Below are positions 14,850-59,460 of a stretch of 64,000 nucleotides of DNA, one piece after another (position 1 is the stretch's first letter; every line of letters begins with the position of its first letter). The notes beneath the pieces were generated by a model, which saw nothing but the letters and a program-made list of their open reading frames with translations, was not told where the DNA came from and ran no database searches. Source of the DNA: an uncultured Candidatus Saccharibacteria bacterium (GTDB lineage: Bacteria; Patescibacteriota; Minisyncoccia; 2-02-FULL-40-12); the NCBI GenBank assembly GCA_964368135.1, contig CAYIZI010000001.1, forward strand, positions 42,926-106,925, given 5' to 3'. The position numbers and the translations under genes were made by a program.

Positions 14850-14856
14850 TAATTTA

Positions 14857-14895
14857 ATTATAACAAAAGAAAAAATATCATCAAGATGATATAAT
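14857..14895. promoter_or_regulatory. Divergent -10 boxes placed 6-7 nt from both start codons (leaderless-type arrangement)
   Basis: Minus-strand TATAAT (14862-14857) lies 7 nt before the grx ATG. Plus-strand TGaTATAAT (14887-14895) lies 6 nt before the DUF763 ATG. The palindrome atatcatc-aa-gatgatat overlaps. Confidence 0.4.
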
Positions 14896-14901
14896 CAAAA
14901 T

Positions 14902-16050
14902 ATGAGAACAGGAATTGCGAATTTTACTTTAGATTACGGAAAAGCCCCCCGGTGGCTGATTGAACGGATGGTAAAACTCGGCCGGATAATCGGCATTGCT
15001 ATTGTTGAAGAATTCGGAACCGAGGAATTCATAAAACGGCTGTCTGATCCGGTCTGGTTTCAGAGTCTTGGCTGTGTCCTTGCTTTTGACTGGAACGCAT
15101 CGGGTCTCACCACAACCACCATGGGCGCCCTAAAAGAGGCCTTTCGCGGACTTGAGCAAGAATTCGGCATTTATATTTGCGGCGGCAAAGGCAAAACCTC
15201 GCGCAAAACGCCTGATGAAATTTTTGATTGGGGATTAAAAATTGGGCTGGACGAAAACAAGGGTAAACGGTTGATTTTTGCTTCCAAAGCCGCGGCCAAA
15301 GTAGATAGTTCTCTGATTCAAGACGGTTTTCAAATCTATCACCATAATTTTATCTTCACTCATAACGGAAAATGGTCAGTAATCCAGCAAGGCATGAATA
15401 CAATTTGGCAAAAAGCCAGGCGCTACCACTGGTTCGGCGATTTAACTTTGTCTGATTTTGTGAACGAGCCTCATAGCGGTATCGCCAGTCAGGCAAAATT
15501 AAAACAGGTATTAAATCTAACCTCTGGCCATAGCGAGAAAAATAGAGTCATATCAACTCAATTGGTGGATGACCGGAAAAATTTAGTCAAAGATATTAAT
15601 CTTATCCAAACATTCTCAAACCCAACAGCTTCCCTTTTTGAAAATGATGGAGTAAAAATCCTCAACCTGACTGACAATGACTTTAGAACTCATCGGGTGG
15701 TAGATGAAAAAATCAATTTTGAATCGCCGCATCTCAAAAAAAGCTTTGATAAAATTTTCACCGAACAGCCAAAAACCTTTCAAGATTTAATGATGATCCG
15801 CGGCGTCGGGCCAAAAACTATTCGCGCCTTGTCTTTGGTCGCCGAAATAATCTATGGCGCCAAGCCCTCATACGAGGACCCGGCCCGCTACTCATTTGCC
15901 CATGGCGGCAAAGACCATATCCCCTACCCGGTTGACCGCCAGACTTATGACAAAACCATTGACATTATGGGGCGAGCCGTCAGAAACGCTAAGAATCTCT
16001 CCTCAAAAGAAAAAGACGGCGTCCAGCGCCGCCTTGCCCAGATAAATTGA
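14902..16050 (+). CDS. DUF763-family protein
   Basis: N-terminal GKAPRWLIERMVKLGRIIGIAIVEEFGTEEFIKRLSDPVWFQSLGCVLAFDWNASGLTTT matches my recollection of DUF763. Helix-hairpin-helix-like IRGVGPKTIRALSLVAEIIYG. Confidence 0.65.
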   Translation: MRTGIANFTLDYGKAPRWLIERMVKLGRIIGIAIVEEFGTEEFIKRLSDPVWFQSLGCVLAFDWNASGLTTTTMGALKEAFRGLEQEFGIYICGGKGKTSRKTPDEIFDWGLKIGLDENKGKRLIFASKAAAKVDSSLIQDGFQIYHHNFIFTHNGKWSVIQQGMNTIWQKARRYHWFGDLTLSDFVNEPHSGIASQAKLKQVLNLTSGHSEKNRVISTQLVDDRKNLVKDINLIQTFSNPTASLFENDGVKILNLTDNDFRTHRVVDEKINFESPHLKKSFDKIFTEQPKTFQDLMMIRGVGPKTIRALSLVAEIIYGAKPSYEDPARYSFAHGGKDHIPYPVDRQTYDKTIDIMGRAVRNAKNLSSKEKDGVQRRLAQIN

Positions 16051-16055
16051 GAGTT

Positions 16056-16813
16056 TCAAAGATTAATGAGCTTCTGGGCCAGCTTTCTCACCCCCTCTTT
16101 CCACAGAGCCGGTTCGGTCGTGTCAATGTCAGCCAGAAGATAAGCCGGCGGTTTTTTCAAAATCCACTTGCCGCCGCCTTCTCTGGACCAGCGATAATGG
16201 TGCGGCGTTCTCCGCCACATCTCCTTGAATTTAATCACTGCTCCTTTCTGCTGTCCCTTGCCTTCTTTCCAGGTGCTCTTTGCACCGCCGAAGAAATCTT
16301 CAGACGAATCTTCGTAAGAGGCTGAGAGCATTCGGCCCAACATCACTTCTGGATCAGTATAGGTTCGGATAAAGAAGAGTTCTGCTCCGGCCTTGGCGAC
16401 TTTTGCTTTCAAGCTGGCTCTTTTTTTCTCATCAGCAAAGTCAGCATCAAAAATGACATTGCCGCCCCGTTTCAAGATTTCAAGAGATACATTTTCGGCA
16501 ATCTGCCGGACATAGAGATACTTCTCGCCGACTTTTCGAAGCTGGACCCTGATCGCATCTCCTTCAATTACCACGCCGCCGATCCTCAAGCCAGCTCTTT
16601 GGCCACCGAGCTCTTGCCCGAACCGACAAGTCCCAAAAGAGCAACAACAACCCTGTTTTTGGTCTTGCGTTTGACAGGCCCAATATCAGACTGAACCTTG
16701 TTGATGAAGGCTTCTTGGGCCTTTTTTGCTTTAGCAGAGAGGGTTTCTTTCCTATGAACCATTACCTTCATGATAAAAGGCAGAATGGCCTCGGTCAATC
16801 TTCTAAACATCAC
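16056..16813 (-). pseudogene. P-loop kinase/NTPase (zeta-toxin/AAA_33-like) split into two ORFs by a frameshift
   Basis: The 75-aa ORF ends LLGLVGSGKSSVAKELA* (Walker A). The 177-aa ORF starts one base out of frame at TTG 16589 with RIGGVVIEGDAIR...NVIFDADF. Together they read as one protein. Confidence 0.5.
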
Positions 16814-16865
16814 TCACCTCCGTATACGTATAAAAGTTTAAAACCAACCCAAACGAGCTAATTTA

Positions 16866-16894
16866 AAAATACCACGAAAAACTAAGAGTGTCAA
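16866..16894 (-). promoter_or_regulatory. Candidate sigma-70 promoter for the P-loop kinase gene
   Basis: The minus strand reads TTGACA, 17 nt, TATTTT. Downstream, GGAGGTGAgtgATG. Confidence 0.4.
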
Positions 16895-16898
16895 AAAC

Positions 16899-17161
16899 AA
16901 AAACTGCAAACATGAAACTTTAGCTTAAGGGCCGCAGGGTATAGCCAATTTCCGAGAGTTCGGCCGGAGCAGATACAAATAACCGAAGCGAGTAAAAATT
17001 TGCCGGTAACACAAAGTTGGTGGAGGATCCAATTTTGTCGGCAAATTTTAGTGAGTAAATTCTTATTTACGAACAATACTCGCTGAGGATTATTTGTCTG
17101 CGGAGGTTGCTTGAGGAAATTGGCTATACCCGAGAGCCCTAATTGGATGTTTGCGGTTTTT
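16899..17161. repeat. ~260-bp imperfect fold-back (long palindromic) element
   Basis: Outer arms 16899-16913 / 17147-17161. Perfect 17-bp arms 16937-16953 / 17115-17131. Central hairpin 16997-17047. An arm copy recurs at 22692-22748. Confidence 0.8.
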
Positions 17162-19856
17162 AGTGCCTCATTTGCTCCTTAATCCTCACCTTGAAATTTT
17201 TATCGTAATCAATCTCAATGGCGCTGCCCCGCTCCGGTTCTTCTTTTAAAAGCAATTCCGAAATTCTATTCTCAATCTGCCGCTGAATCACCCGGCGAAG
17301 TTCCCTGGCCCCAAAATGCGGGTCATAACCCTCTTCAGCTAATTTTTTAATCGCTTGAGACGAAATATTTAGATTATAGCCGAGCATCTTCAGTTTCTCG
17401 GTCAGCTTTTCCAGCTGAAGAACAACAATCTTTTGAATCTGTTCTTTCTCAAGCGATTTAAAGACAATCACTTCGTCAAAACGATTCAAAAACTCAGGCC
17501 GGAAATAGGTCCTTAAATTGTTTACCAAAAGCTCGCGCAAAGATTCATAGCCCATTCGGTCGCTGTCGGACTTATCAAATTCGCGGTGAATTATATCAGA
17601 ACCGACATTAGAAGTGGCGATAATAATGGTGTTTGAAAAATCAACCTTGCGGCCCTGGCCGTCAGTCAAACGGCCGTCTTCCAAAACCTGAAGCAGAATA
17701 TTAAAAACATCGGGGTGGGCTTTTTCAATTTCATCCAGTAAAATTATTGAATGCGGACGGCGGCGGACAATTTCTGTCAGCTGTCCCCCTTCTTCGTAGC
17801 CGACATATCCGGGCGGCGCGCCGATTAAACGGGAAACATTGTGCTTTTCCATATATTCAGACATATCCAGGCGGGCCATTGCATTTTCATCGCCAAAAAG
17901 CACATTAGCCAAAGTCCGAACCATTTCGGTTTTGCCGACACCGGTCGGCCCAAGAAACAAAAACGAAGCAATCGGCCGGTGAACATCGCCCAATCCGGCC
18001 CGGCCCCGCCTGATTGCTTCAGCCACAGCCTTAACCGCCTCTTCCTGGTCAATTAACCGTTCGTGAATCCTATTTTCCAGATTCAGCAGCTTCTCCTTTT
18101 CGGCCTGGGTCAATTGAGTCACCGGAACTCCGGTCAGCTTAGAGACCACTTCCGCCACATTTTCAAAGGTAACTTCTGGGATAATCTTCGCTTTTTTATT
18201 TTCCCAGGTGTCAAGCTTCTCGGCTCTTTCTTTTTCCAATTCAACAAGTTCCTTTTCAATCAGCGACACTTTTTTGCTTTTAGAATGCTTGGCCGCATCA
18301 AGCTCTTTTTTCAGGCCGCGAATTTTTTCTTCAATTCTTTTCAGCTCATCCGGCTCGGTAGTGAACTTAATCCTGACTCGCGAGGCGGCCTGGTCAATTA
18401 AATCAATAGCTTTGTCCGGCAAGAAGCGGCCGGTGATGTAGCGATGCGAAAGTTCGGCCGCGCCGACAATGGCTTCATCAGAAATCTTAACCCGGTGATG
18501 CGACTCATAGCGGTCGCGTAAACCATGCAATATCTCCACGGTTTCGCCAACTGTCGGCTCACTGACATAAATCGGTTGGAAGCGACGCTCCAGAGCCGCA
18601 TCTTTCTCAATGTGCTTTTGGTACTCTTTCAAAGTGGTGGCGCCGACAATATGAAGCTCGCCCCGAGCCAAAGCCGGCTTAAACATATTAGCCGCGTCCA
18701 TTGCCCCGCCTTCAGCCCGGCCAGCACCGACAAGTAAATGCAATTCATCAATAAAAACAATCAACTTGTTGGAATTGGCAACTATTTCTTCCAAAACTGA
18801 CTTTAGCCGCTCTTCAAACTGGCCGCGAAACTGGGTGCCGGCTAAGATGCCGGACAAATCTAATTCAACCACTCTTTTACCTTGCAAGGGCTCGGGCACA
18901 TTTCCAGAAACGATTCTTTGGGCGAGCCCTTCAATAATGGCTGTTTTACCGACTCCGGGCTCGCCGATTAAAACCGGGTTGTTCTTGGTTCGGCGGGCCA
19001 AAACTTCAATTGCCGTTTCAATCTCTTTGTGCCGGCCAATAACCGGGTCTAACTTCCCTATTCTGGCAAGTTGGGTAAGGTCGCGGGAAAACTGATCCAA
19101 AGCAGGGGTCTGCATCATCGGAATAAAACCTTCTTTGGCTCCCCGGCCCACCGCCTTAACCACCGCGTTCCTTAGTTTCTCGTAATCAAGCTTTTGTTTC
19201 TTTAAAACACGAGCACCCAAACCCTCACCCTCCTGCATCAAAGCCAAAAGCAGATGTTCTGGACCGACATAGTTGTGGTGTAAATTTTGGGCTTCAGGCA
19301 AAGCAATATCCAGAATTCTTTTCATTCGCGGTGAAAACTCTAACTCGTCTTCAGCAGTCCCGCCCTTTTGAATACTTTTTTCAAGATTAGACCTGACTTC
19401 TGTTTCCGAAATTCTTAAATTATTCAAAATCTTTTTGATGACCTGGTCATTTATCAAAGCCAAAAGCAGGTGCTCGGTGTCAACTTCCGAACTGCCGAAA
19501 GCTTGAGCCTGACCGCCGGCCTCTCCTAAAATGTGCTTGGCTGATTCGGAAAGGTAATCCTGGACGTCAACTCTTTCCTGAACTCTTGGCTCGGCCTGAA
19601 ATATGTCGCCGAAAAAATCGCCGAAAATATCGTCGCCAAAAATACTGCCAAACCCAAACGGATCGCGCGGATCGCGGCCGCGACCGCTTGGTTTTTTAGG
19701 GCTATCTCCTTGCCCTGAACCTGCTGAACCGCCAAAACTAAAACTCACTCCTTTGGCAGAGCACTGGTCACAAACATTGGTCACCGACTGGACCCCATTA
19801 ACTATCTTAACCACTCGCCGTGTAGCAGAATTTTTCTTGCAAATATCACAGAGCAT
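17160..19856 (-). CDS. clpC: ATP-dependent Clp protease ATP-binding subunit ClpC with an N-terminal zinc ribbon
   Basis: Two Clp_N repeats. Two AAA modules (GEPGVGKTA, GPTGVGKTE; DEIEKAH). Short coiled-coil middle domain (ClpC-like, not ClpB-length). The N-terminal CDIC...CDQC ribbon resembles McsA. Confidence 0.85.
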   Translation of the reverse strand: MLCDICKKNSATRRVVKIVNGVQSVTNVCDQCSAKGVSFSFGGSAGSGQGDSPKKPSGRGRDPRDPFGFGSIFGDDIFGDFFGDIFQAEPRVQERVDVQDYLSESAKHILGEAGGQAQAFGSSEVDTEHLLLALINDQVIKKILNNLRISETEVRSNLEKSIQKGGTAEDELEFSPRMKRILDIALPEAQNLHHNYVGPEHLLLALMQEGEGLGARVLKKQKLDYEKLRNAVVKAVGRGAKEGFIPMMQTPALDQFSRDLTQLARIGKLDPVIGRHKEIETAIEVLARRTKNNPVLIGEPGVGKTAIIEGLAQRIVSGNVPEPLQGKRVVELDLSGILAGTQFRGQFEERLKSVLEEIVANSNKLIVFIDELHLLVGAGRAEGGAMDAANMFKPALARGELHIVGATTLKEYQKHIEKDAALERRFQPIYVSEPTVGETVEILHGLRDRYESHHRVKISDEAIVGAAELSHRYITGRFLPDKAIDLIDQAASRVRIKFTTEPDELKRIEEKIRGLKKELDAAKHSKSKKVSLIEKELVELEKERAEKLDTWENKKAKIIPEVTFENVAEVVSKLTGVPVTQLTQAEKEKLLNLENRIHERLIDQEEAVKAVAEAIRRGRAGLGDVHRPIASFLFLGPTGVGKTEMVRTLANVLFGDENAMARLDMSEYMEKHNVSRLIGAPPGYVGYEEGGQLTEIVRRRPHSIILLDEIEKAHPDVFNILLQVLEDGRLTDGQGRKVDFSNTIIIATSNVGSDIIHREFDKSDSDRMGYESLRELLVNNLRTYFRPEFLNRFDEVIVFKSLEKEQIQKIVVLQLEKLTEKLKMLGYNLNISSQAIKKLAEEGYDPHFGARELRRVIQRQIENRISELLLKEEPERGSAIEIDYDKNFKVRIKEQMRH

Positions 19857-21914: not shown

Positions 21915-22669
21915 ATACGTTTGTGAGTATGCGGATAAATTCCAACTTCTGTTCCATAAAGTTTTTTTAACTCCTCCCTGCTTAACGCCTCCTGGGGAGG
22001 ACCAAAACAAACTTTTTCCTTGTTGATGCACAAAACGCTGGAGGCCTGTTCATAAACAACATGAATGTCATGGGAAATAAAAATTATAGTCAAATCATGC
22101 TCGTCTCTTAACTTACGAAGGAGATTGTAAATCGTTTCTTCACCGCCGATATCTACTCCGGTGGTTGGCTCATCAAAAAGCAAAACTTTTGGATTACCCA
22201 AAAGAGCAAAAGCAATTAAAACCTTCTGAAGCTCACCGCCAGACAGCACCCCAAGTGGCTGGTTTAAAATGTGATGGACTAAGTGGTGCTCATCATGGGT
22301 ACCTGCCCCGTAGCTCGCCGCAGGCGATGGTTCGGGGTGAAAACCGACCCATTTTAAAACCTCGGCTACTTTACTCTTGCCGGCTTTTTTATAGTTCAAA
22401 AACTCTTTGACACTCAAAGGCAGATCGCGTTCAACAATGAAACGCTGGGGCACGTAGCCGACTTTAATATTTTTATACCAAAGGAACTTTCCTGAATAAG
22501 GCACCAGGCCCAGCAAAGTCCGGAATAAAACCGTCTTCCCGGCGCCGTTTGGTCCGACCACGGCCATGATGTCGCCTTTCTTGACTTCAAAACTCAAATC
22601 GCTGATAACTTTATCGCCGTTAAACTGAACATTCAGGTTCTCCACTTTGAGGATTAAATCGTTGGGCAT
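21911..22669 (-). CDS. Metal ABC transporter ATP-binding protein (ZnuC-like)
   Basis: Walker A GPNGAGKT, signature LSGGELQ, Walker B LLLFDEPT, H-loop SHD. Carries an in-frame hairpin at 22306-22337. Confidence 0.85.
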   Translation of the reverse strand: MPNDLILKVENLNVQFNGDKVISDLSFEVKKGDIMAVVGPNGAGKTVLFRTLLGLVPYSGKFLWYKNIKVGYVPQRFIVERDLPLSVKEFLNYKKAGKSKVAEVLKWVGFHPEPSPAASYGAGTHDEHHLVHHILNQPLGVLSGGELQKVLIAFALLGNPKVLLFDEPTTGVDIGGEETIYNLLRKLRDEHDLTIIFISHDIHVVYEQASSVLCINKEKVCFGPPQEALSREELKKLYGTEVGIYPHTHKRI

Positions 22670-22691
22670 CGGTTTTAATGATAACAGATTG

Positions 22692-22748
22692 CTCGGGTAT
22701 AGCCAATTTCTTTTCTGACTTTTTTAGACAAATAATCCTCAGAGAGTA
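22692..22748. repeat. Solo copy of the fold-back element arm
   Basis: ctcgggtatagccaatttc (19/19) and agacaaataatcctcag (17/17) are identical to the reverse complement of 17083-17134. The spacer has diverged. Confidence 0.85.
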
Positions 22749-22775
22749 TCCGGTTTTCGTTTTTTAAAAATTTTA

Positions 22776-22804
22776 TTGACAAATACCTTAAATTATTTTA
22801 CTCT
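22776..22804 (+). promoter_or_regulatory. Candidate promoter of the ClpP-like gene
   Basis: TTGACA at 22776-22781, then a 17-nt spacer and tactct (TAnnnT). A strong SD, AAAGGAGGTG, lies 7 nt before ATG 22832. Confidence 0.3.
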
Positions 22805-22831
22805 TTCCAAAGCTCAAAAGGAGGTGTAGTA

Positions 22832-23437
22832 ATGGAACCAAAGGAAGAAATAGCCAAAAAGTTGCTGGAAAGACGGATTTTAGTGATGACCGGCGAAATA
22901 ACCAAAGAGAAAGTTGATGAAGTGAGGAGTGGCCTGATATGGCTGAATGCCCTCTCCAATGACGAAATCAAACTGATCATTGACACAAAAGGAGGTGAAT
23001 GTGAGCCTGGGTTTTGGTTGGTAGATTTCGTCCAGATGCTTAGTGCTCCTGTTATAGGTATAGTGAACGGGGAATGTTACTCAATAGGCATCGCCATTCT
23101 CCAAGGATGCCGCAAGAGGCTGGCGACGCCCCATAGCTGGTTCCAAGTTCATTTCACCGGTGGCACCTTCAGGTACGCTCCCCGCGACGAGAAAAGAGAA
23201 AAGAAGTTTGAAATCAGATTGACACAGAGCCAAAAAGTCCAGGAACAGATGCTCCAACTTCTTTCCTCCAGAACCGGCAAAACTCCGAAGGAAATAATCG
23301 CTCTCTGTGAAAAAGGAGAGAAGTACGATTGGAGGTTTTCGGCCTCCGAAGCAAAGGAGCTGGGATTCGTTGACAAGGTAGTGGAAAAGTTCGAGTTATT
23401 TCCTGCTCCACCTTTGACAACACCGCCAACGCCTTAG
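22832..23437 (+). CDS. ClpP-family serine protease paralogue (divergent, short N-terminus)
   Basis: Aligns by eye to ClpP: LLERRILVMTGEI, IDTKGGE, GECYSIG (Ser), QVHFTGG (His), YDWRFSASEAKELGFVD (Asp). Pro/Thr-rich tail. Confidence 0.65.
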   Translation: MEPKEEIAKKLLERRILVMTGEITKEKVDEVRSGLIWLNALSNDEIKLIIDTKGGECEPGFWLVDFVQMLSAPVIGIVNGECYSIGIAILQGCRKRLATPHSWFQVHFTGGTFRYAPRDEKREKKFEIRLTQSQKVQEQMLQLLSSRTGKTPKEIIALCEKGEKYDWRFSASEAKELGFVDKVVEKFELFPAPPLTTPPTP

Positions 23438-23459
23438 GGCCGCGGCGGTTTTTCGTTTT

Positions 23460-23717
23460 TTATTTATACAAATTCGGGTGAGTATCTAAAGCAATAAAGT
23501 ATGCAGTATTATCATCAACTAACTCATAAACCGCTCGATAATTTCCGGTAATATTAATACTGCGACAGCCTTTATACTTTCCAGTGAGTCCGTGATTATT
23601 CAAAATTGGATCAAACGGGTCTTTCGAAAATAAAACAAGTCGTTCATCGACTTTTTTCTGAATAGCTCGTAGTTTCTTAAACTTCTTCTTAAAATTTTGG
23701 TGAAAAAGAATTTTCAC
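23460..23717 (-). CDS. Type II toxin, RelE/ParE/YafQ superfamily
   Basis: 85 aa. The KKFKKL...NNHGLTGKYKGCRSINITGNYRAVYE pattern is typical of YafQ/RelE-type mRNA interferases. Starts at the base right after the upstream antitoxin stop (no intergenic gap). Confidence 0.65.
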   Translation of the reverse strand: MKILFHQNFKKKFKKLRAIQKKVDERLVLFSKDPFDPILNNHGLTGKYKGCRSINITGNYRAVYELVDDNTAYFIALDTHPNLYK

Positions 23718-23990
23718 TTACGAATGCAGGTAATCAAAGGCTTCTTCAATAGAATCAAAAACAGGAGAAATATTCTTCTTGGCTTTATAATCTTTTCTGG
23801 CCTGACCAATAAGCTTTTCTAATTCCGGAGTCATTTTAGGCATAACTGAAAAGTAAAGTCTTCGGCTTCTAATAAACTGTTTAAGGTTTGCATTTATAAT
23901 TGTACTTAAATTAAGACCTAATTCTTTGGCTAATTTTTGAGCATTCTCTTTAACTTCCTTATCTGCTTTTATATTGATCATCGTCTTCAT
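23718..23990 (-). CDS. Type II antitoxin, RelB/DinJ family
   Basis: From ATG 23990: MKTMINIKADKEVKENAQKLAKELGLNLSTIINANLKQFI, which resembles the DinJ/RelB ribbon-helix-helix N-terminus. Confidence 0.6.
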   Translation of the reverse strand: MKTMINIKADKEVKENAQKLAKELGLNLSTIINANLKQFIRSRRLYFSVMPKMTPELEKLIGQARKDYKAKKNISPVFDSIEEAFDYLHS

Positions 23991-24101
23991 CCCGTTAGAA
24001 ATTTTACAGACCGTCAACCACTCTAAGCTGGTAGCTAAACTTATAAAACTTCATATCACTTAATTTGTGTTTATTCCCGTTAGGGCTAACTTCTAACGGG
24101 A
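23990..24101. promoter_or_regulatory. Candidate toxin-antitoxin operator: three copies of TCCCGTTAG
   Basis: tcccgttag at 23990-23998 (touching the antitoxin start codon) and 24075-24083, with the inverted copy ctaacggga at 24093-24101. Confidence 0.4.
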
Positions 24102-24136
24102 TTCATATCTAAAGTATATACAACGGATATTTAATG

Positions 24137-25960
24137 TCAAGGGTTAATATTTTTTAATTCCAAGTTTTTCGTATTCTTGCATTTCGGGAAATTCGAGCAG
24201 GCCAGGAATTTGCCGAAGCGGCCCATCCGAATGACCATCTTGCCGCCGCATTTCTCGCAGATTTCATCGGTCTCCTCCACTTCCTTTCCGCCGACTTCTT
24301 TGTACTTCTTTTCAAGGTTAGCCGAAAACGGTCCGTAAAATTCTCTAATCAAACTAACCCACTTTTCTTTACCTTCAGCCACATCATCCAATTCGTTTTC
24401 CATATTGCTGGTAAATTTTATATCAACCACGTCCGGGAAGTGCTCAACAAGAAGGTCGTTGACCATTTTGCCAATTTCGGTCGGGTGAAAATAACGAGAA
24501 CGGTCTTTTTGAACATAGTTCCTTAGCTGAATGGTGGAAATTATCGGCGCGTAAGTTGAGGGTCGGCCGATTCCGTATTTTTCCAAAATTTTAACCAATG
24601 AGGCTTCGTTATAACGGGCCGGCGGTTTGGTAAAATGCTGTTCCGGCTTTAATTCCAAAAGTCTTAATTTTTCTTTTTCCTCAAGCGGCGGTAACTCGGT
24701 TTCTTCGTATTTAATCGGATAGACTTTTAAAAAGCCGTCAAATTTCAAAGTCTGGCCATTGGAGCTGAAAGTATAATTCTTGGCCAAAATTTCCACGCTC
24801 ATCGTGTCAAACACCGCCTCTTTCATCTGAGTGGCCATAAAGCGCCGCCAGATTAAATCATAGAGTTTGAACTGCTGGGGGGTTAAACCGCTTTTGATGC
24901 TTTCCGGTGTTCGCGAAGGCTCGGTCGGCCGGATAGCTTCGTGAGCTTCTTGGGCCAAACGAGACTTGGTTTTATATTTTCTCGGAAATCCGGCATAGTA
25001 TCTTTGGCCAAACAGATTTATAATCGCCTCTTTAGCCGCAAAAAGTGATTGTTCCGAAAGATTAGTGGAGTCGGTCCTCATATAGGTAATATAGCCGTTT
25101 TCGTAAAGCTGCTGAGCTATCATCATTGTCTGCTTTGAGGAGAATCTTAATTTTTTAAACCCTTCCTGCTGGAGGGTGCTGGTGGTAAATGCCGCCGCCG
25201 GAATTCTTTTCATCTCTTTTCGCTCAATTTTTGAAACGGCATAATCCGCGCCTTCCAAATCTTTCAAAATCTTATCGGCTTCGGCTTTGTTTTTTATCCC
25301 TAATTTTTCTATTGCTTCACCGTTCAATTTTGAAAGCAAAGCTGTAAGTTTGCCTTGTTTTGCTTTCAATAACGCCTCAATACTCCAATATTCCTGGGGT
25401 TTAAAATTCTCAATTTCTCTTTCCCGCTCAACCACCAGCCGCACCGCCACTGACTGAACCCGGCCGGCTGAAAGGCCGCGGGCAACTTTCTTCCATAAAA
25501 ACGGCGAGAGCTTATAACCAACCAAACGGTCAAGTACTCTGCGGGCCTGCTGGGCATCAACCAAATTCATATCAATATCGCGCGGATTTTTGAGAGCTTC
25601 TTCAATTGCCCGCTTGGTGACTTCGTGAAAAACAATTCTTTCAACTGCTTTTTTACCGCCCTTATCCAAACCTAAGGCCTTAACCAAATGCCAGGAAATT
25701 GCCTCCCCTTCTCGGTCTTCATCAGTGGCCATTATCACTTTTTCCGCCTTTGGCAGAAATTTCTTCAAAATAGTAATGGTTTTTCTGGCTTTTGGCGGAA
25801 TCACATACTTTGGCTGAAAATCATTTTCAACATCCACGCCCAAATCGGTCTTGGGCAAATCCCGCACATGGCCAAACGAAGACTGAACCGAATAATCCCG
25901 GCCTAAAAACTGACTTATTGTCCGCGCTTTGATCGGACTCTCAACCACAATCAACTTCAT
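24137..25960 (-). CDS. topA: DNA topoisomerase I
   Basis: Toprim start KLIVVESPIKARTI, DEDREGEAI, active-site region YITYMRTDST, and the C-terminal zinc ribbon CEKCGGKMVIRMGRFGKFLACSNFPKC. Confidence 0.9.
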   Translation of the reverse strand: MKLIVVESPIKARTISQFLGRDYSVQSSFGHVRDLPKTDLGVDVENDFQPKYVIPPKARKTITILKKFLPKAEKVIMATDEDREGEAISWHLVKALGLDKGGKKAVERIVFHEVTKRAIEEALKNPRDIDMNLVDAQQARRVLDRLVGYKLSPFLWKKVARGLSAGRVQSVAVRLVVEREREIENFKPQEYWSIEALLKAKQGKLTALLSKLNGEAIEKLGIKNKAEADKILKDLEGADYAVSKIERKEMKRIPAAAFTTSTLQQEGFKKLRFSSKQTMMIAQQLYENGYITYMRTDSTNLSEQSLFAAKEAIINLFGQRYYAGFPRKYKTKSRLAQEAHEAIRPTEPSRTPESIKSGLTPQQFKLYDLIWRRFMATQMKEAVFDTMSVEILAKNYTFSSNGQTLKFDGFLKVYPIKYEETELPPLEEKEKLRLLELKPEQHFTKPPARYNEASLVKILEKYGIGRPSTYAPIISTIQLRNYVQKDRSRYFHPTEIGKMVNDLLVEHFPDVVDIKFTSNMENELDDVAEGKEKWVSLIREFYGPFSANLEKKYKEVGGKEVEETDEICEKCGGKMVIRMGRFGKFLACSNFPKCKNTKNLELKNINP

Positions 25961-58614: not shown

Positions 58615-59181
58615 GTATAGGCCAATAAACGCAGCCAGGGTGTTAAAAACGATATTGCCTAAAGTCATCGGAATCATCAGCCGCCAGTAAGGATAGTGAA
58701 TAAAACCAAGGGGCATGACCACCAAATCATCAGGCAGAGGGATAAAAGCGCCGTAGCTGAAAATGGCCAGACTGGCCAGCCACTTGGGATGAGACAAAGA
58801 CCATTCATAAGCCCGGTCAATGGTTTTTTGAATTCTTGAAGGGATAATTTCCCGGCCATGATATGCAATAACATAAGAAGTTGAATCACCCAAGAAAAGG
58901 CCGATGCCGGCCACAAAACCCAAAAGAAATGGGTTTAACCCGCCGGCGGCAAAAGTCATCACAAAGAGATAATAAGGAATCGGAACAAAGGTTGAGATGC
59001 CGCCCAAGAAAGCCAAAACAAAGGTAATCAAATAGCCGTTTCGGACGCCCAGAATCTCAATAATGTCAGCCGGCGGAATCCGGTAAATAAAAACTGTCCA
59101 GGCGACAAAAAGAGCAATCAGGATTAAAAAAGGAAATTGGGCTTTACTAACTATCCCCCGCACCTTTTCTGAATAGGTCAA
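58597..59181 (-). CDS. YqaA/DedA-like (VTT-domain-like) membrane protein
   Basis: 194 aa, TTG start. FLGGISTFVPIPYYLFVMTFAAGGLNPFLLGFVAGIGLFLGDSTSY. Both gene ends lie inside the repeat copies. Confidence 0.5.
   Translation of the reverse strand: MTYSEKVRGIVSKAQFPFLILIALFVAWTVFIYRIPPADIIEILGVRNGYLITFVLAFLGGISTFVPIPYYLFVMTFAAGGLNPFLLGFVAGIGLFLGDSTSYVIAYHGREIIPSRIQKTIDRAYEWSLSHPKWLASLAIFSYGAFIPLPDDLVVMPLGFIHYPYWRLMIPMTLGNIVFNTLAAFIGLYTPHLF
59156..59174. repeat. Inverted 19-bp copy of the repeat core
   Basis: ccccgcaccttttctgaat is the reverse complement of attcagaaaaggtgcgggg (58595-58613 and 59441-59459). Encodes residues 3-8 of the membrane protein. Confidence 0.95.
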
Positions 59182-59435
59182 GACGACAAACTGCCGAGTA
59201 TTCTTCTCTTAAGCTGAGAATATACTTTACCGAACTGTTTCAGTTTTTTCTCACGGTTTCTGACGTCTTGACCGTTTAGATAACCTTCACAATAAACTAA
59301 CTTCCAAGGAATGAAAGCTTTAGTCGACCGATTATATCCTAAATTATGTTCTCTTATCCTTTTTAAAATATTAGTTGTTATGCCAATATATAATTTCTTG
59401 TTTTTATCGCTTTTCAATAAATAGACATAGAACAT
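59178..59435 (-). CDS. Small stand-alone GIY-YIG nuclease-family protein (85 aa)
   Basis: MFYVYLLKSDKNKKLYIGITTNILKRIREHN...PWKLVYCEGY...RNREKKLK. Only the last 85 codons of track ORF 59178-59765 are credible. Confidence 0.75.
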   Translation of the reverse strand: MFYVYLLKSDKNKKLYIGITTNILKRIREHNLGYNRSTKAFIPWKLVYCEGYLNGQDVRNREKKLKQFGKVYSQLKRRILGSLSS

Positions 59436-59460
59436 AATAAATTCAGAAAAGGTGCGGGGT
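59430..59460. repeat. 31-bp direct repeat, copy 2
   Basis: Identical to 58584-58614. Contains the GIY-YIG start codon and begins 3 nt after the stop of the 345-aa gene. Confidence 0.95.

Follow-up and report, generated by a model that had tools for sequence, protein, structure and literature searches.

A lineage-specific family of non-coding hairpin repeats in groundwater Parcubacteria, with one copy abutting the clpC stop codon

Introduction

Several kinds of small non-coding elements that fold into hairpins have been described in bacterial genomes. The Correia/NEMIS elements of Neisseria, the pneumococcal RUP, and the cyanobacterial Nezha are sequences of 100-300 bp with terminal inverted repeats; ERIC/IRU (127 bp in the case of ERIC) and the pneumococcal BOX are imperfect palindromes located in transcribed intergenic regions; and REP/BIME are extragenic palindromes, made of units of 20-40 nt with a conserved GTAG-type head, that are often found after stop codons. 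Two further systems have a comparable shape. The attC sites of integrons, 57-141 nt long, are imperfect palindromes that carry the consensus core sites R'' (RYYYAAC) and R' (GTTRRRY), and bidirectional intrinsic terminators combine a GC-rich basal stem with A-run and T-run flanks. The genomes of Patescibacteria (candidate phyla radiation) are very small and gene-dense, and our full-text search of the literature retrieved no relevant work on MITEs or hairpin repeats for either Patescibacteria or Parcubacteria.

In this study, we analyzed a fold-back element that abuts the stop codon of a clpC gene in a stretch of 64 kb of DNA, which we refer to as the window. Our results identify this element as one copy of an undescribed, lineage-specific family of non-coding hairpin repeats of groundwater Parcubacteria (Patescibacteria). 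A first-pass annotation of the window had offered three readings of the element, namely a MITE-like fold-back repeat, a very long terminator or processed RNA, and a regulatory module shared by Clp genes, and they are considered below together with the evidence that bears on each of them.

Results

The fold-back element at the clpC stop codon

The element spans positions 16899..17161 (~263 nt); its G-rich apical loop lies on the + strand, which is the strand that folds better, and clpC lies on the - strand. The gene at 17160-19856 (- strand) encodes a ClpC-type double AAA+ ATPase, and its stop codon TAA (17160..17162, - strand) overlaps the outer arm, so that the element starts at the stop codon itself and leaves the conserved ClpC C-terminus (...EQ[VM][KR]H*) unchanged. 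The outer 5' arm AAAAACTGCAAACAT (16899..16913, + strand) is the outer module of the family and pairs with the outer 3' arm ATGTTTGCGGTTTTT (17147..17161, + strand), which overlaps the stop codon and has a T-run at its end. According to an inverted-repeat search, these 15-nt arms are 93% complementary, their sole non-Watson-Crick position being a G.T on the + strand, and the sequence directly after the hairpin on the - strand is TTTTTGTTTTTG. Farther inside, a 17-bp perfect terminal inverted repeat, GGGTATAGCCAATTTCC (16937-16953 / 17115-17131), which can be extended to 26 nt at 85%, bounds an inner unit at 16933..17131 (+ strand). The center contains a perfect 11-nt hairpin (16995-17005 / 17039-17049), the apical stem-loop ACAAAGTTGG / TGGAGGAT / CCAATTTTGT at 17011..17038 (+ strand; loop at 17021-17028), which is the most conserved block of the family, and a small side hairpin GTAAAT TCTT ATTTAC at 17055..17070 (+ strand), located at a three-way junction. 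The imperfect pairs cagatacaaataa/ttatttgtctg and agcgagt/actcgct belong to the minimum-free-energy fold. All the complementary blocks that had been described in the first-pass annotation are thus present where it had placed them.

The predicted fold of a 301-nt stretch containing the element is a single long hairpin with a three-way junction near its tip. With RNA parameters, the + strand folds at -126.3 kcal/mol (z -11.1) and the - strand at -105.2 kcal/mol (z -8.5), and no shuffled sequence was as stable in either case; with DNA parameters, the same 301 nt yield -69.2 for the + strand vs -61.0 for the - strand. The proposed fold-back is therefore real and lies far beyond chance on both strands. 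A promoter-like site (TTGACA, 17 nt, TG-TATTTT; 16866..16894, - strand), called by consensus match only, is located directly past the hairpin and before a gene of 75 aa; in the window, this placement of the next gene's promoter-like site fits a terminator view of the hairpin.

The fold scan across the 64-kb window returned one other comparable outlier, at ~1600-1900, which was rejected as a copy of the family, being a string of short unrelated hairpins between convergent genes. A second perfect inverted repeat, at 59156-59459, was found to be unrelated and was also rejected. Consequently, the window contains one full copy and one half copy of the family, and no further full copies were found within its 64 kb. 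The only internal ORF of the element (61 aa, 16891-17076, - strand) lies in arms that vary among copies and has no Pfam match, and the short peptides that might be encoded after the GGAGGA loop were discarded as coding candidates since, by inspection, they are not conserved among copies. A tRNA-like reading of the GGGTATAGCC end was likewise rejected, as ARAGORN identifies no tRNA in the window.

Dispersed copies in related genomes

Copies were sought by means of pattern scans, a sequence profile, and a covariance model; a fuzzy regular expression for the terminal module was dropped because it gave hundreds of matches per locus, controls included. A ClpC protein identical to that of the window is encoded on a 126.9-kb Hainich groundwater contig (well H51, 0.1 um fraction), and the closest ClpC relatives, with 73-84% identity, are labelled Parcubacteria or Patescibacteria group. 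When a 16-mer of the terminus was compared with species-representative genomes, nearly all the listed matches were due to chance (the one in L069, for example, was rejected as a coding-sequence coincidence), and the only relevant one among them was L015, a contig of a metagenome-assembled genome, labelled Saccharibacteria, that has both termini at the same spacing as in the window. Positions 1473-1671 of L015 are 99% identical to 16933-17131 of the window over 199 nt, and this copy (L015a) lies in flanks unrelated to those of the window, between a divergent gene and dnaE, upstream of dnaE. A second, diverged copy (L015b) directly follows the dnaE stop codon; it shares the termini GGGTATAGCC...GGCTATACCC and the apical block, and its arms differ from those of the window with their pairing kept.

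The apical block TTGGTGGAGGANCCNATTTTGTC was found in metagenomes at 13 loci, from Hainich assemblies and one JGI metagenome, all of which are hairpins of 230-360 nt; it has 0 matches in viral contigs. The core profile recovered extra diverged copies in these loci and in those of the ClpC relatives: four in 14 kb of L122, three in 8 kb of L015, two each in L124, L128, and L136, and one in L139, which belongs to a separately deposited assembly. No profile matches occurred in ~870 kb of unrelated control loci. The covariance model identified 24 forward copies in ~235 kb of related loci, and its match in the window covers 16944-17114 (16945-17110 with the profile). Rfam has 0 matches in the window at the gathering threshold; in six other copy-bearing loci it returned rRNA and tRNA only, and around two copies, at E values up to 10, only matches at chance level.

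A modular and covarying structure

The copies are ~200-330 nt long, all of them fold as long hairpins, and they are mosaics of recurring modules. The outer stem is either CCGCAAACAT...ATGTTTGCGG (in the window, L126, L129, and L130) or GAAAAGCC...GGCTTTTC; the outer 5' arm of the window is homologous to the outer stems of those three loci and also to a remnant found after the clpC stop codon in L139. Next to it is a terminal module in which GGG[TC]ATA.C.AATTTC(TGA) pairs with (GAA)GAAAT.G.TAT.CCC, usually with CGCA before it and GAGA after it on the G-rich strand, and nested twice in one sub-family. The arms are variable and define at least four sub-families, one of which comprises the copies of the window, L015a, and L127. 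An inner conserved stem (ATTGCCG...CGGCAAT) leads to the apical stem, which covaries (AGTTGG/CCAATT, GCTAGGG/CCCTAG, ATCTATGG/CCTGAT) and supports a loop that is always G-rich (GGTGGAGG, GGCGGAGG or GGGGTGGAC), also in the diverged copies. In the model alignment, 92% of the cells are paired vs 35-50% in slid controls, and 35 of the 47 pairs show compensatory changes; the arms differ among sub-families, and their pairing is kept. The polarity of the whole element is conserved (read along the G-rich strand, CGCA is 5' and GAGA is 3'), and the conservation of the center equals or exceeds that of the termini, in part through ascertainment by the search pattern. Membership of the window element in this family, the dispersion of the family, and the conservation of its structure are direct observations.

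Closely related strains document how the modules behave. L015 and L123 are 98% identical; at one shared locus they have the same arms and flanks, and the apical hairpin and the side hairpin have been replaced, which means that copies exchange modules. In L126, a copy that is otherwise 97% identical contains two additional small hairpins. Orthologous copies located after yceG are 96.9% identical vs 74% at the third codon positions of yceG, and copies at different loci reach 98.7% identity. Judging from these sequence comparisons, an identity above that of synonymous sites points to recent spread or homogenization, or to very strong constraint.

The two strands of the element are not equivalent. 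In 14 of 14 copies, folding is 5-27 kcal/mol more favorable for the G-rich strand than for its complement, and the fixed structure read on this strand contains 73 G.U vs 18 A.C, including one U.G pair that is mostly conserved. In most copies the G-rich strand is antisense to the upstream gene, and the mRNA-sense hairpin is consequently the weaker one. The GC skew of the window is negative and, given the gene orientation, the G-rich strand would lie on the leading-strand template; a deamination bias on the coding or lagging-template strand predicts the opposite of what is observed, so selection on the G-rich strand, as RNA or as single-stranded DNA, is possible.

These asymmetries are what would be expected if the family consisted of genes for a structured small RNA read from the G-rich strand (+ in the window), in which the G-rich, Shine-Dalgarno-like apical loop GGUGGAGG would be the functional site and the convergence with upstream genes, described below, would reflect a shared bidirectional termination. 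The wobble bias and the better fold of this strand, its conserved U.G pairs and strong covariation, a loop conserved on a stem that covaries, the fixed polarity, a T-run after the base on the G-rich strand in ~10 of 14 copies, and the conservation of orthologous copies far above that of synonymous sites are all in line with such genes. We nevertheless regard this explanation as unlikely: no consistent sigma-70-like promoter was found upstream of the G-rich strand across copies, no Rfam family matches, the copy at the clpC site is decayed in L139 and absent in three relatives, and the occurrence of up to four copies in 14 kb, together with half copies, nested modules, and module swaps, is the behavior of a repeat.

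Genomic neighborhoods and the clpC site

The genes that flank other copies are some 20 different housekeeping genes in mixed orientation, including fmt, efp, frr, yceG, a glycosyltransferase, dnaE, an aminoacyl-tRNA synthetase, lepA, dnaB, ftsZ, cobO, def, and those of ribosomal proteins L15 and S16; no Clp gene was found beside any other copy among the flanking genes scanned. No transposase was identified among 30 proteins flanking copies in related loci, nor among the 10 ORFs scanned in the surroundings of the window copy and of the solo arm described below. In 17 of 22 distinct copies, the G-rich strand and the gene that touches its 3' end converge; counting distinct loci, ~14 of 19 have a convergent abutting gene. 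In these convergent copies, the C-rich strand is the mRNA-sense one, and the element starts a few bases from the stop codon (4-95 nt separate this codon from the core).

The 3' end of clpC was compared among eight ClpC relatives. In L134, L138, and L142 (82-83% ClpC identity), clpC and grx (glutaredoxin) are separated by 5-6 nt and there is no element. In L139 (81%), the stop codon is followed by ~95 nt homologous to the clpC-proximal arm of the window and then by nothing more, and this remnant does not fold (z 0.2). L133 (84%) has an element with termini as in the window and a different interior, and L136 and L141 (81% and 76%) have other genes at this position. The occupancy of the orthologous clpC site is therefore variable, this site being empty, decayed, or replaced. 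In the comparison of empty sites that the first-pass annotation had suggested, the site is empty in three relatives, and at 81-84% ClpC identity no clean insertion boundaries can be delimited.

The second, partial copy of the window is a solo arm at 22692..22749 (+ strand), a decayed half copy whose sequence is that of the right arm (17076-17134) in reverse complement, the spacer having diverged: positions 22692-22710 match the reverse complement of 17116-17134 in 19 of 19 nt, and 22726-22749 match that of 17076-17099 in 23 of 24. It has no pairing partner, is not picked up by either the core sequence profile or the covariance model, and lies between the start of an ABC-transporter ATPase gene (22669, - strand) and a ClpP-like gene (22832-23437, + strand) with a weak Clp_protease domain. 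The blocks of 19 and 17 nt that had been noted as shared with the full element are thus genuine, but the promoter of the ClpP-like gene proposed for ~30 nt past the solo arm was not called by our consensus scan, which finds a TTGACA with a poor -10 element.

A full copy abutting clpC and a half copy upstream of a ClpP-like gene had led to the proposal of a cis-regulatory module shared by both genes. We find this highly improbable and read the arrangement as coincidence only. The full copy is downstream of clpC and not upstream; three close ClpC relatives (L134, L138, and L142) lack the element, and L139 retains a remnant that does not fold; the ClpP-like gene is itself absent from L134; and the other copies are flanked by ~20 housekeeping genes, none of them a Clp gene. 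The link to Clp is coincidental since the clpC 3' end of relatives is empty, decayed, or replaced, and as the ClpP-like gene is an islet gene (see below), the meeting of two Clp genes lends no support to regulation. The first-pass annotation had itself named many copies without relation to Clp genes as the outcome that would tell against Clp regulation, and such copies are what our searches revealed.

Terminator-like features

In at least 9 of 14 copies, inspection identifies GAAAAGCC...GGCTTTTC or an equivalent base, and many copies have at their base a GC clamp with an A-run on one side and a T-run on the other. The hairpin of the window is followed by T5 on one strand and by T5GT5 on the other, with U5GU5 on the clpC-sense strand; the copies in L126, L129, and L130 have no T-run. 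It is important to consider that, in an automated count, the 12 nt that follow the hairpin contain T at a background level because the T-runs lie inside the basal stem; this count is uninformative, and the terminator reading accordingly draws on inspection. The consensus terminator scanner does not call stems as long as these. The copy between fmt and the essential gene efp in L120 has the opposite orientation and immediately precedes efp in sense, which excludes that it terminates all transcription at this site. The suggestion of a very long terminator or processed RNA thus describes a plausible effect of the element, which abuts stop codons and in many copies has a base of the form A-run/GC/.../GC/T-run, although three copies lack the T-run. 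A role as a portable terminator or as a structure protecting 3' ends would be compatible with these observations.

A more conventional version of the same idea would hold that we are dealing with a vertically inherited, ordinary terminator or 3'-UTR structure, duplicated a few times with no mobility involved. Its position right after stop codons, the design of its base in many copies, and the fact that the fmt-efp and yceG-3' sites are occupied in several diverged genomes agree with this explanation, which we nonetheless judge improbable for the following reasons. First, a 199-nt unit that is 99% identical occurs in two unrelated contexts. Second, the identity between copies is 97-99% vs 74% at neighboring third codon positions. 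Third, the fmt-efp spacer is occupied in three genomes whose Fmt proteins are 58-70% identical, but these copies differ in sub-family, in orientation, and in the accompanying hairpin elements of other types. Fourth, the clpC site is empty in three relatives. Finally, the ordinary terminators of this organism (e.g., 1761-1805 and 62459-62505) are short hairpins; they have the same A-run/GC/T-run design with short loops.

Gene islets at the edges of copies

In comparison with the syntenic relative L134, the window contains two inserted gene blocks. The first measures 2.3 kb (genes of 75 aa, 177 aa, and DUF763) and separates clpC from grx, the hairpin marking its border on the clpC side. The second measures 1.5 kb (the ClpP-like gene and a toxin-antitoxin-like pair) and separates topA from the ABC transporter, with the solo arm at one border. 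At this same border of clpC, L133 contains another islet, bounded by termini as in the window, and in L122 the genes def and fmt are separated by an inserted DUF5680 gene that two inverted copies enclose.

This distribution could be explained if the hairpin were, as single-stranded DNA, a recombination or transposition site through which small accessory islets are inserted between housekeeping genes; such a site can be modelled on the folded bottom strand of integron attC, or on the ends of IS200/IS605 and REP. The element and the solo arm are each at the edge of a block absent from L134, the islets of L133 and L122 are bounded by copies or their termini, the better-folding strand is complementary to the upstream ORF as is the attC bottom strand, and G.T pairs stabilize the + strand with DNA parameters too. 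Despite these points, we assign this explanation a low probability. No integrase, HUH, or other recombinase, and specifically no tyrosine recombinase, was detected beside any copy among the neighbors scanned, and there are no cassette arrays. The elements are two to five times as long as attC, their ends (CGCAAAC / GTTTGCG and GGGTATAGCC / GGCTATACCC) do not match the RYYYAAC / GTTRRRY consensus, and many copies, such as those at fmt-efp, dnaE-3', and yceG-3', have no accessory gene nearby.

Discussion

Taken together, our results favor, with somewhat better than even confidence, a new MITE/ERIC-like family of modular non-coding hairpin repeats that is probably co-transcribed as a terminator-like 3' hairpin. 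The idea of a MITE-like fold-back repeat has held up well, given that copies are found at unrelated loci, one of them 99% identical, and that the state of the clpC site varies. The element is small (263 nt) and non-coding; it has terminal inverted repeats (GGGTATAGCCAATTTCC, 17 bp, perfect) and pairs along its whole length, and termini as in the window bound copies in L015, L133, and L139. Multiple dispersed copies are present in related loci (24 forward copies), and presence and absence at an orthologous site are observed at clpC, where the relatives have 81-84% ClpC identity and the boundaries are not clean. A target-site repeat can be proposed for L015a, which is flanked on both sides by GAGCGAA(G), a direct repeat of 7-8 nt; the window copy, L015b, L128, and others have CGCA...GAGA flanks, which do not form a direct repeat. 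The ends that a partner gene of the repeat family would carry are inverted repeats of GGGTATAGCCAATTTC. No inverted pair of termini 0.7-3 kb apart was found in the window or in the loci, which cover a small part of each genome, and no autonomous partner or transposase with matching ends was present in the DNA examined. Mobility by transposition may be considered on the basis of the distribution of the copies.

According to this MITE/ERIC-like reading, near-identical copies would have spread to unrelated loci, where they would have been gained, lost, halved, and rebuilt by module exchange. Copies lodge just 3' of stop codons, mostly in one orientation, and since they do so, the element would be transcribed into the 3' end of the upstream mRNA, where such a very stable hairpin would most likely act as a portable terminator or as a structure that protects the 3' end. 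The 57-nt arm upstream of the ClpP-like gene would then be a decayed half copy, and the two Clp genes would be neighbors of the family by coincidence. In practical terms, annotations of this window should not present the apparent Clp connection as regulation. A family that reaches several copies per 10 kb, placed right at the stop codons of essential genes, would be a notable part of the non-coding DNA of these small genomes. The hairpins probably affect the 3' ends of transcripts, may cause breaks in metagenome assemblies, and offer a convenient marker of variation among strains.

Because of its high conservation and of the wobble bias toward one strand, the family is a candidate functional RNA or single-stranded DNA structure. 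A broader claim, that the hairpins are a new class of strand-specific structured nucleic-acid element in bacteria of the candidate phyla radiation, appears doubtful to us in either of its versions. In the RNA version, which has a low probability, a multi-copy structured RNA would be made from the G-rich strand and its Shine-Dalgarno-like loop would act in trans; in the DNA version, whose probability is also low, the hairpins would be attC-like single-stranded recombination sites that, with an unrecognized recombinase, would bring islets into streamlined genomes. The conserved polarity, the wobble bias of the antisense strand, the conservation above synonymous sites, and the position at islet edges are compatible with such a class.

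In relation to the described systems, the family resembles attC in being an imperfect palindrome right after the stop codon of an ORF, in a fixed orientation to it, whose strand complementary to the ORF folds better and which is found at accessory-gene edges; unlike attC, its members are 200-330 nt long, many of them have no accessory gene nearby, and they lack R''/R' boxes, an integrase, and a cassette array. Many copies share with bidirectional intrinsic terminators the GC-rich basal stem, the A-run and T-run flanks, and the location at gene 3' ends, but here 150-250 nt of conserved, structured sequence take the place of the "loop", T-runs are absent from some copies, and one copy is placed in sense upstream of an essential gene. 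From REP/BIME, the family differs in its length (200-330 nt), in the absence of a conserved GTAG-type head, and in that no RAYT (Y1 HUH) gene was found among the neighbors of copies; it is similar to them in consisting of extragenic palindromes often after stops, in forming mosaic clusters with alternating orientation, and in its possible roles in termination and mRNA 3'-end protection.

We know of no sequence similarity of the family to Correia/NEMIS, RUP, or Nezha, and it differs from these in that no cognate transposase is known for it, in that it has no consistent target-site duplication, and in its fixed polarity with an orientation bias to the upstream gene; unlike a typical MITE, its center is as conserved as its termini. 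Its members are, like these, non-coding elements of comparable size with terminal inverted repeats, multi-copy and intergenic, with near-identical copies at unrelated loci as well as partial copies, and transcribed with neighboring genes as hairpin RNA, which for our family is a prediction. With regard to ERIC/IRU and BOX, the family is about twice as long as ERIC, belongs to another host lineage, has an unrelated sequence, and forms hairpins that are much more stable (-100 to -130 kcal/mol) than those of ERIC and BOX. Nevertheless, like ERIC/IRU and BOX, it is composed of imperfect palindromes in transcribed intergenic regions that are modular mosaics, with size variants produced by extra blocks at fixed internal sites and with compensatory changes that maintain their pairing.

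Further hairpins and a putative superfamily defined by the terminal module

A second family of hairpin repeats, with the interior ...GTAAAGTCAAGAC...ATCTTGACTTACCCTGCTACT..., was identified in the contig of a ClpC relative (L133:10811-11013) and in two contigs that carry family-1 repeats (L120:6830-7030 and L122:8615-8760, the latter in reverse orientation). In L133, this interior is enclosed by the same GGGTATAGCC termini, and in L120 and L122 the second-family hairpins adjoin family-1 copies within the fmt-efp spacers. A third hairpin type was located at L132:4500-4700. Therefore, the terminal module, the recurring end block of family-1 repeats, seems to define a superfamily whose members differ in their interiors. 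The family-1 elements themselves take up small palindromic insertions, as shown by the copy in L126: two additional perfect mini-hairpins of about 40 nt (L126:650-700 and 790-830) interrupt its 5' and 3' arms, while the rest of the copy is 97% identical.

Within the window, the region at 1660-1840 ranks second in structure (z about -6). It lies between convergent genes and consists of a row of four to five separate short hairpins, one of which is a textbook bidirectional terminator (1761-1805); the first hairpin (GGGGTTATAGCAAATTGA...) bears a faint resemblance to the terminal module. A perfect 19-bp inverted repeat, CCCCGCACCTTTTCTGAAT, encloses about 266 bp at 59156-59459 and has no sequence relationship with the clpC hairpin, the family-1 copy abutting the clpC stop. 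This stretch sits between two minus-strand ORFs and contains a short ORF, also on the minus strand, that by eye resembles a small nuclease of the GIY-YIG (UPF0213) type; the stretch may be a small mobile cassette.

Gene insertions around clpC and the ClpP-like gene

Two gene islets of the window are missing from its syntenic relative L134, where clpC and the glutaredoxin gene (grx) lie 5-6 nt apart. The first, between clpC and grx (14854-17158), comprises two genes of 75 and 177 aa plus DUF763; the second, between topA and an ABC transporter (22656-24161), comprises the ClpP-like gene with its terminator as well as two genes resembling a toxin-antitoxin pair (23460-24017). Four other ClpC relatives (L133, L136, L139, and L141) each carry different genes at the clpC-grx junction, including AAA_33, DUF2283, and DUF763, among others, which marks this site as a hotspot.

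At the second islet, the end of the solo arm, a decayed half copy of the family-1 repeat, contributes a -35-like TTGGCT located 17 nt from a TG-extended TATCAT (22678-22706, minus strand). This promoter-like site lies about 8 nt upstream of the start codon of the ABC-transporter ATPase and may be a hybrid promoter yielding a nearly leaderless mRNA.

Directly upstream of clpC, Cas1 genes are inserted in two ClpC relatives (L133:6484-7351, where Cas1 is fragmented, and L136:2078-3049), accompanied by a protein that lacks Pfam matches and is about 505-530 aa long; in the window and in L134, only a PD-(D/E)XK gene occupies that position. On the contig of another ClpC relative, a reverse transcriptase gene (RVT_1) adjoins a bAvd gene (L138:1-1055), a pair that is the signature of a diversity-generating retroelement, and an AbiEii/DUF6922 pair is found close to them.

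In L122 (9918-10925), a DUF5680 gene is inserted between the usual neighbours def and fmt. Two mutually inverted copies of the family-1 repeat flank this gene, a layout similar to that of a composite transposon.
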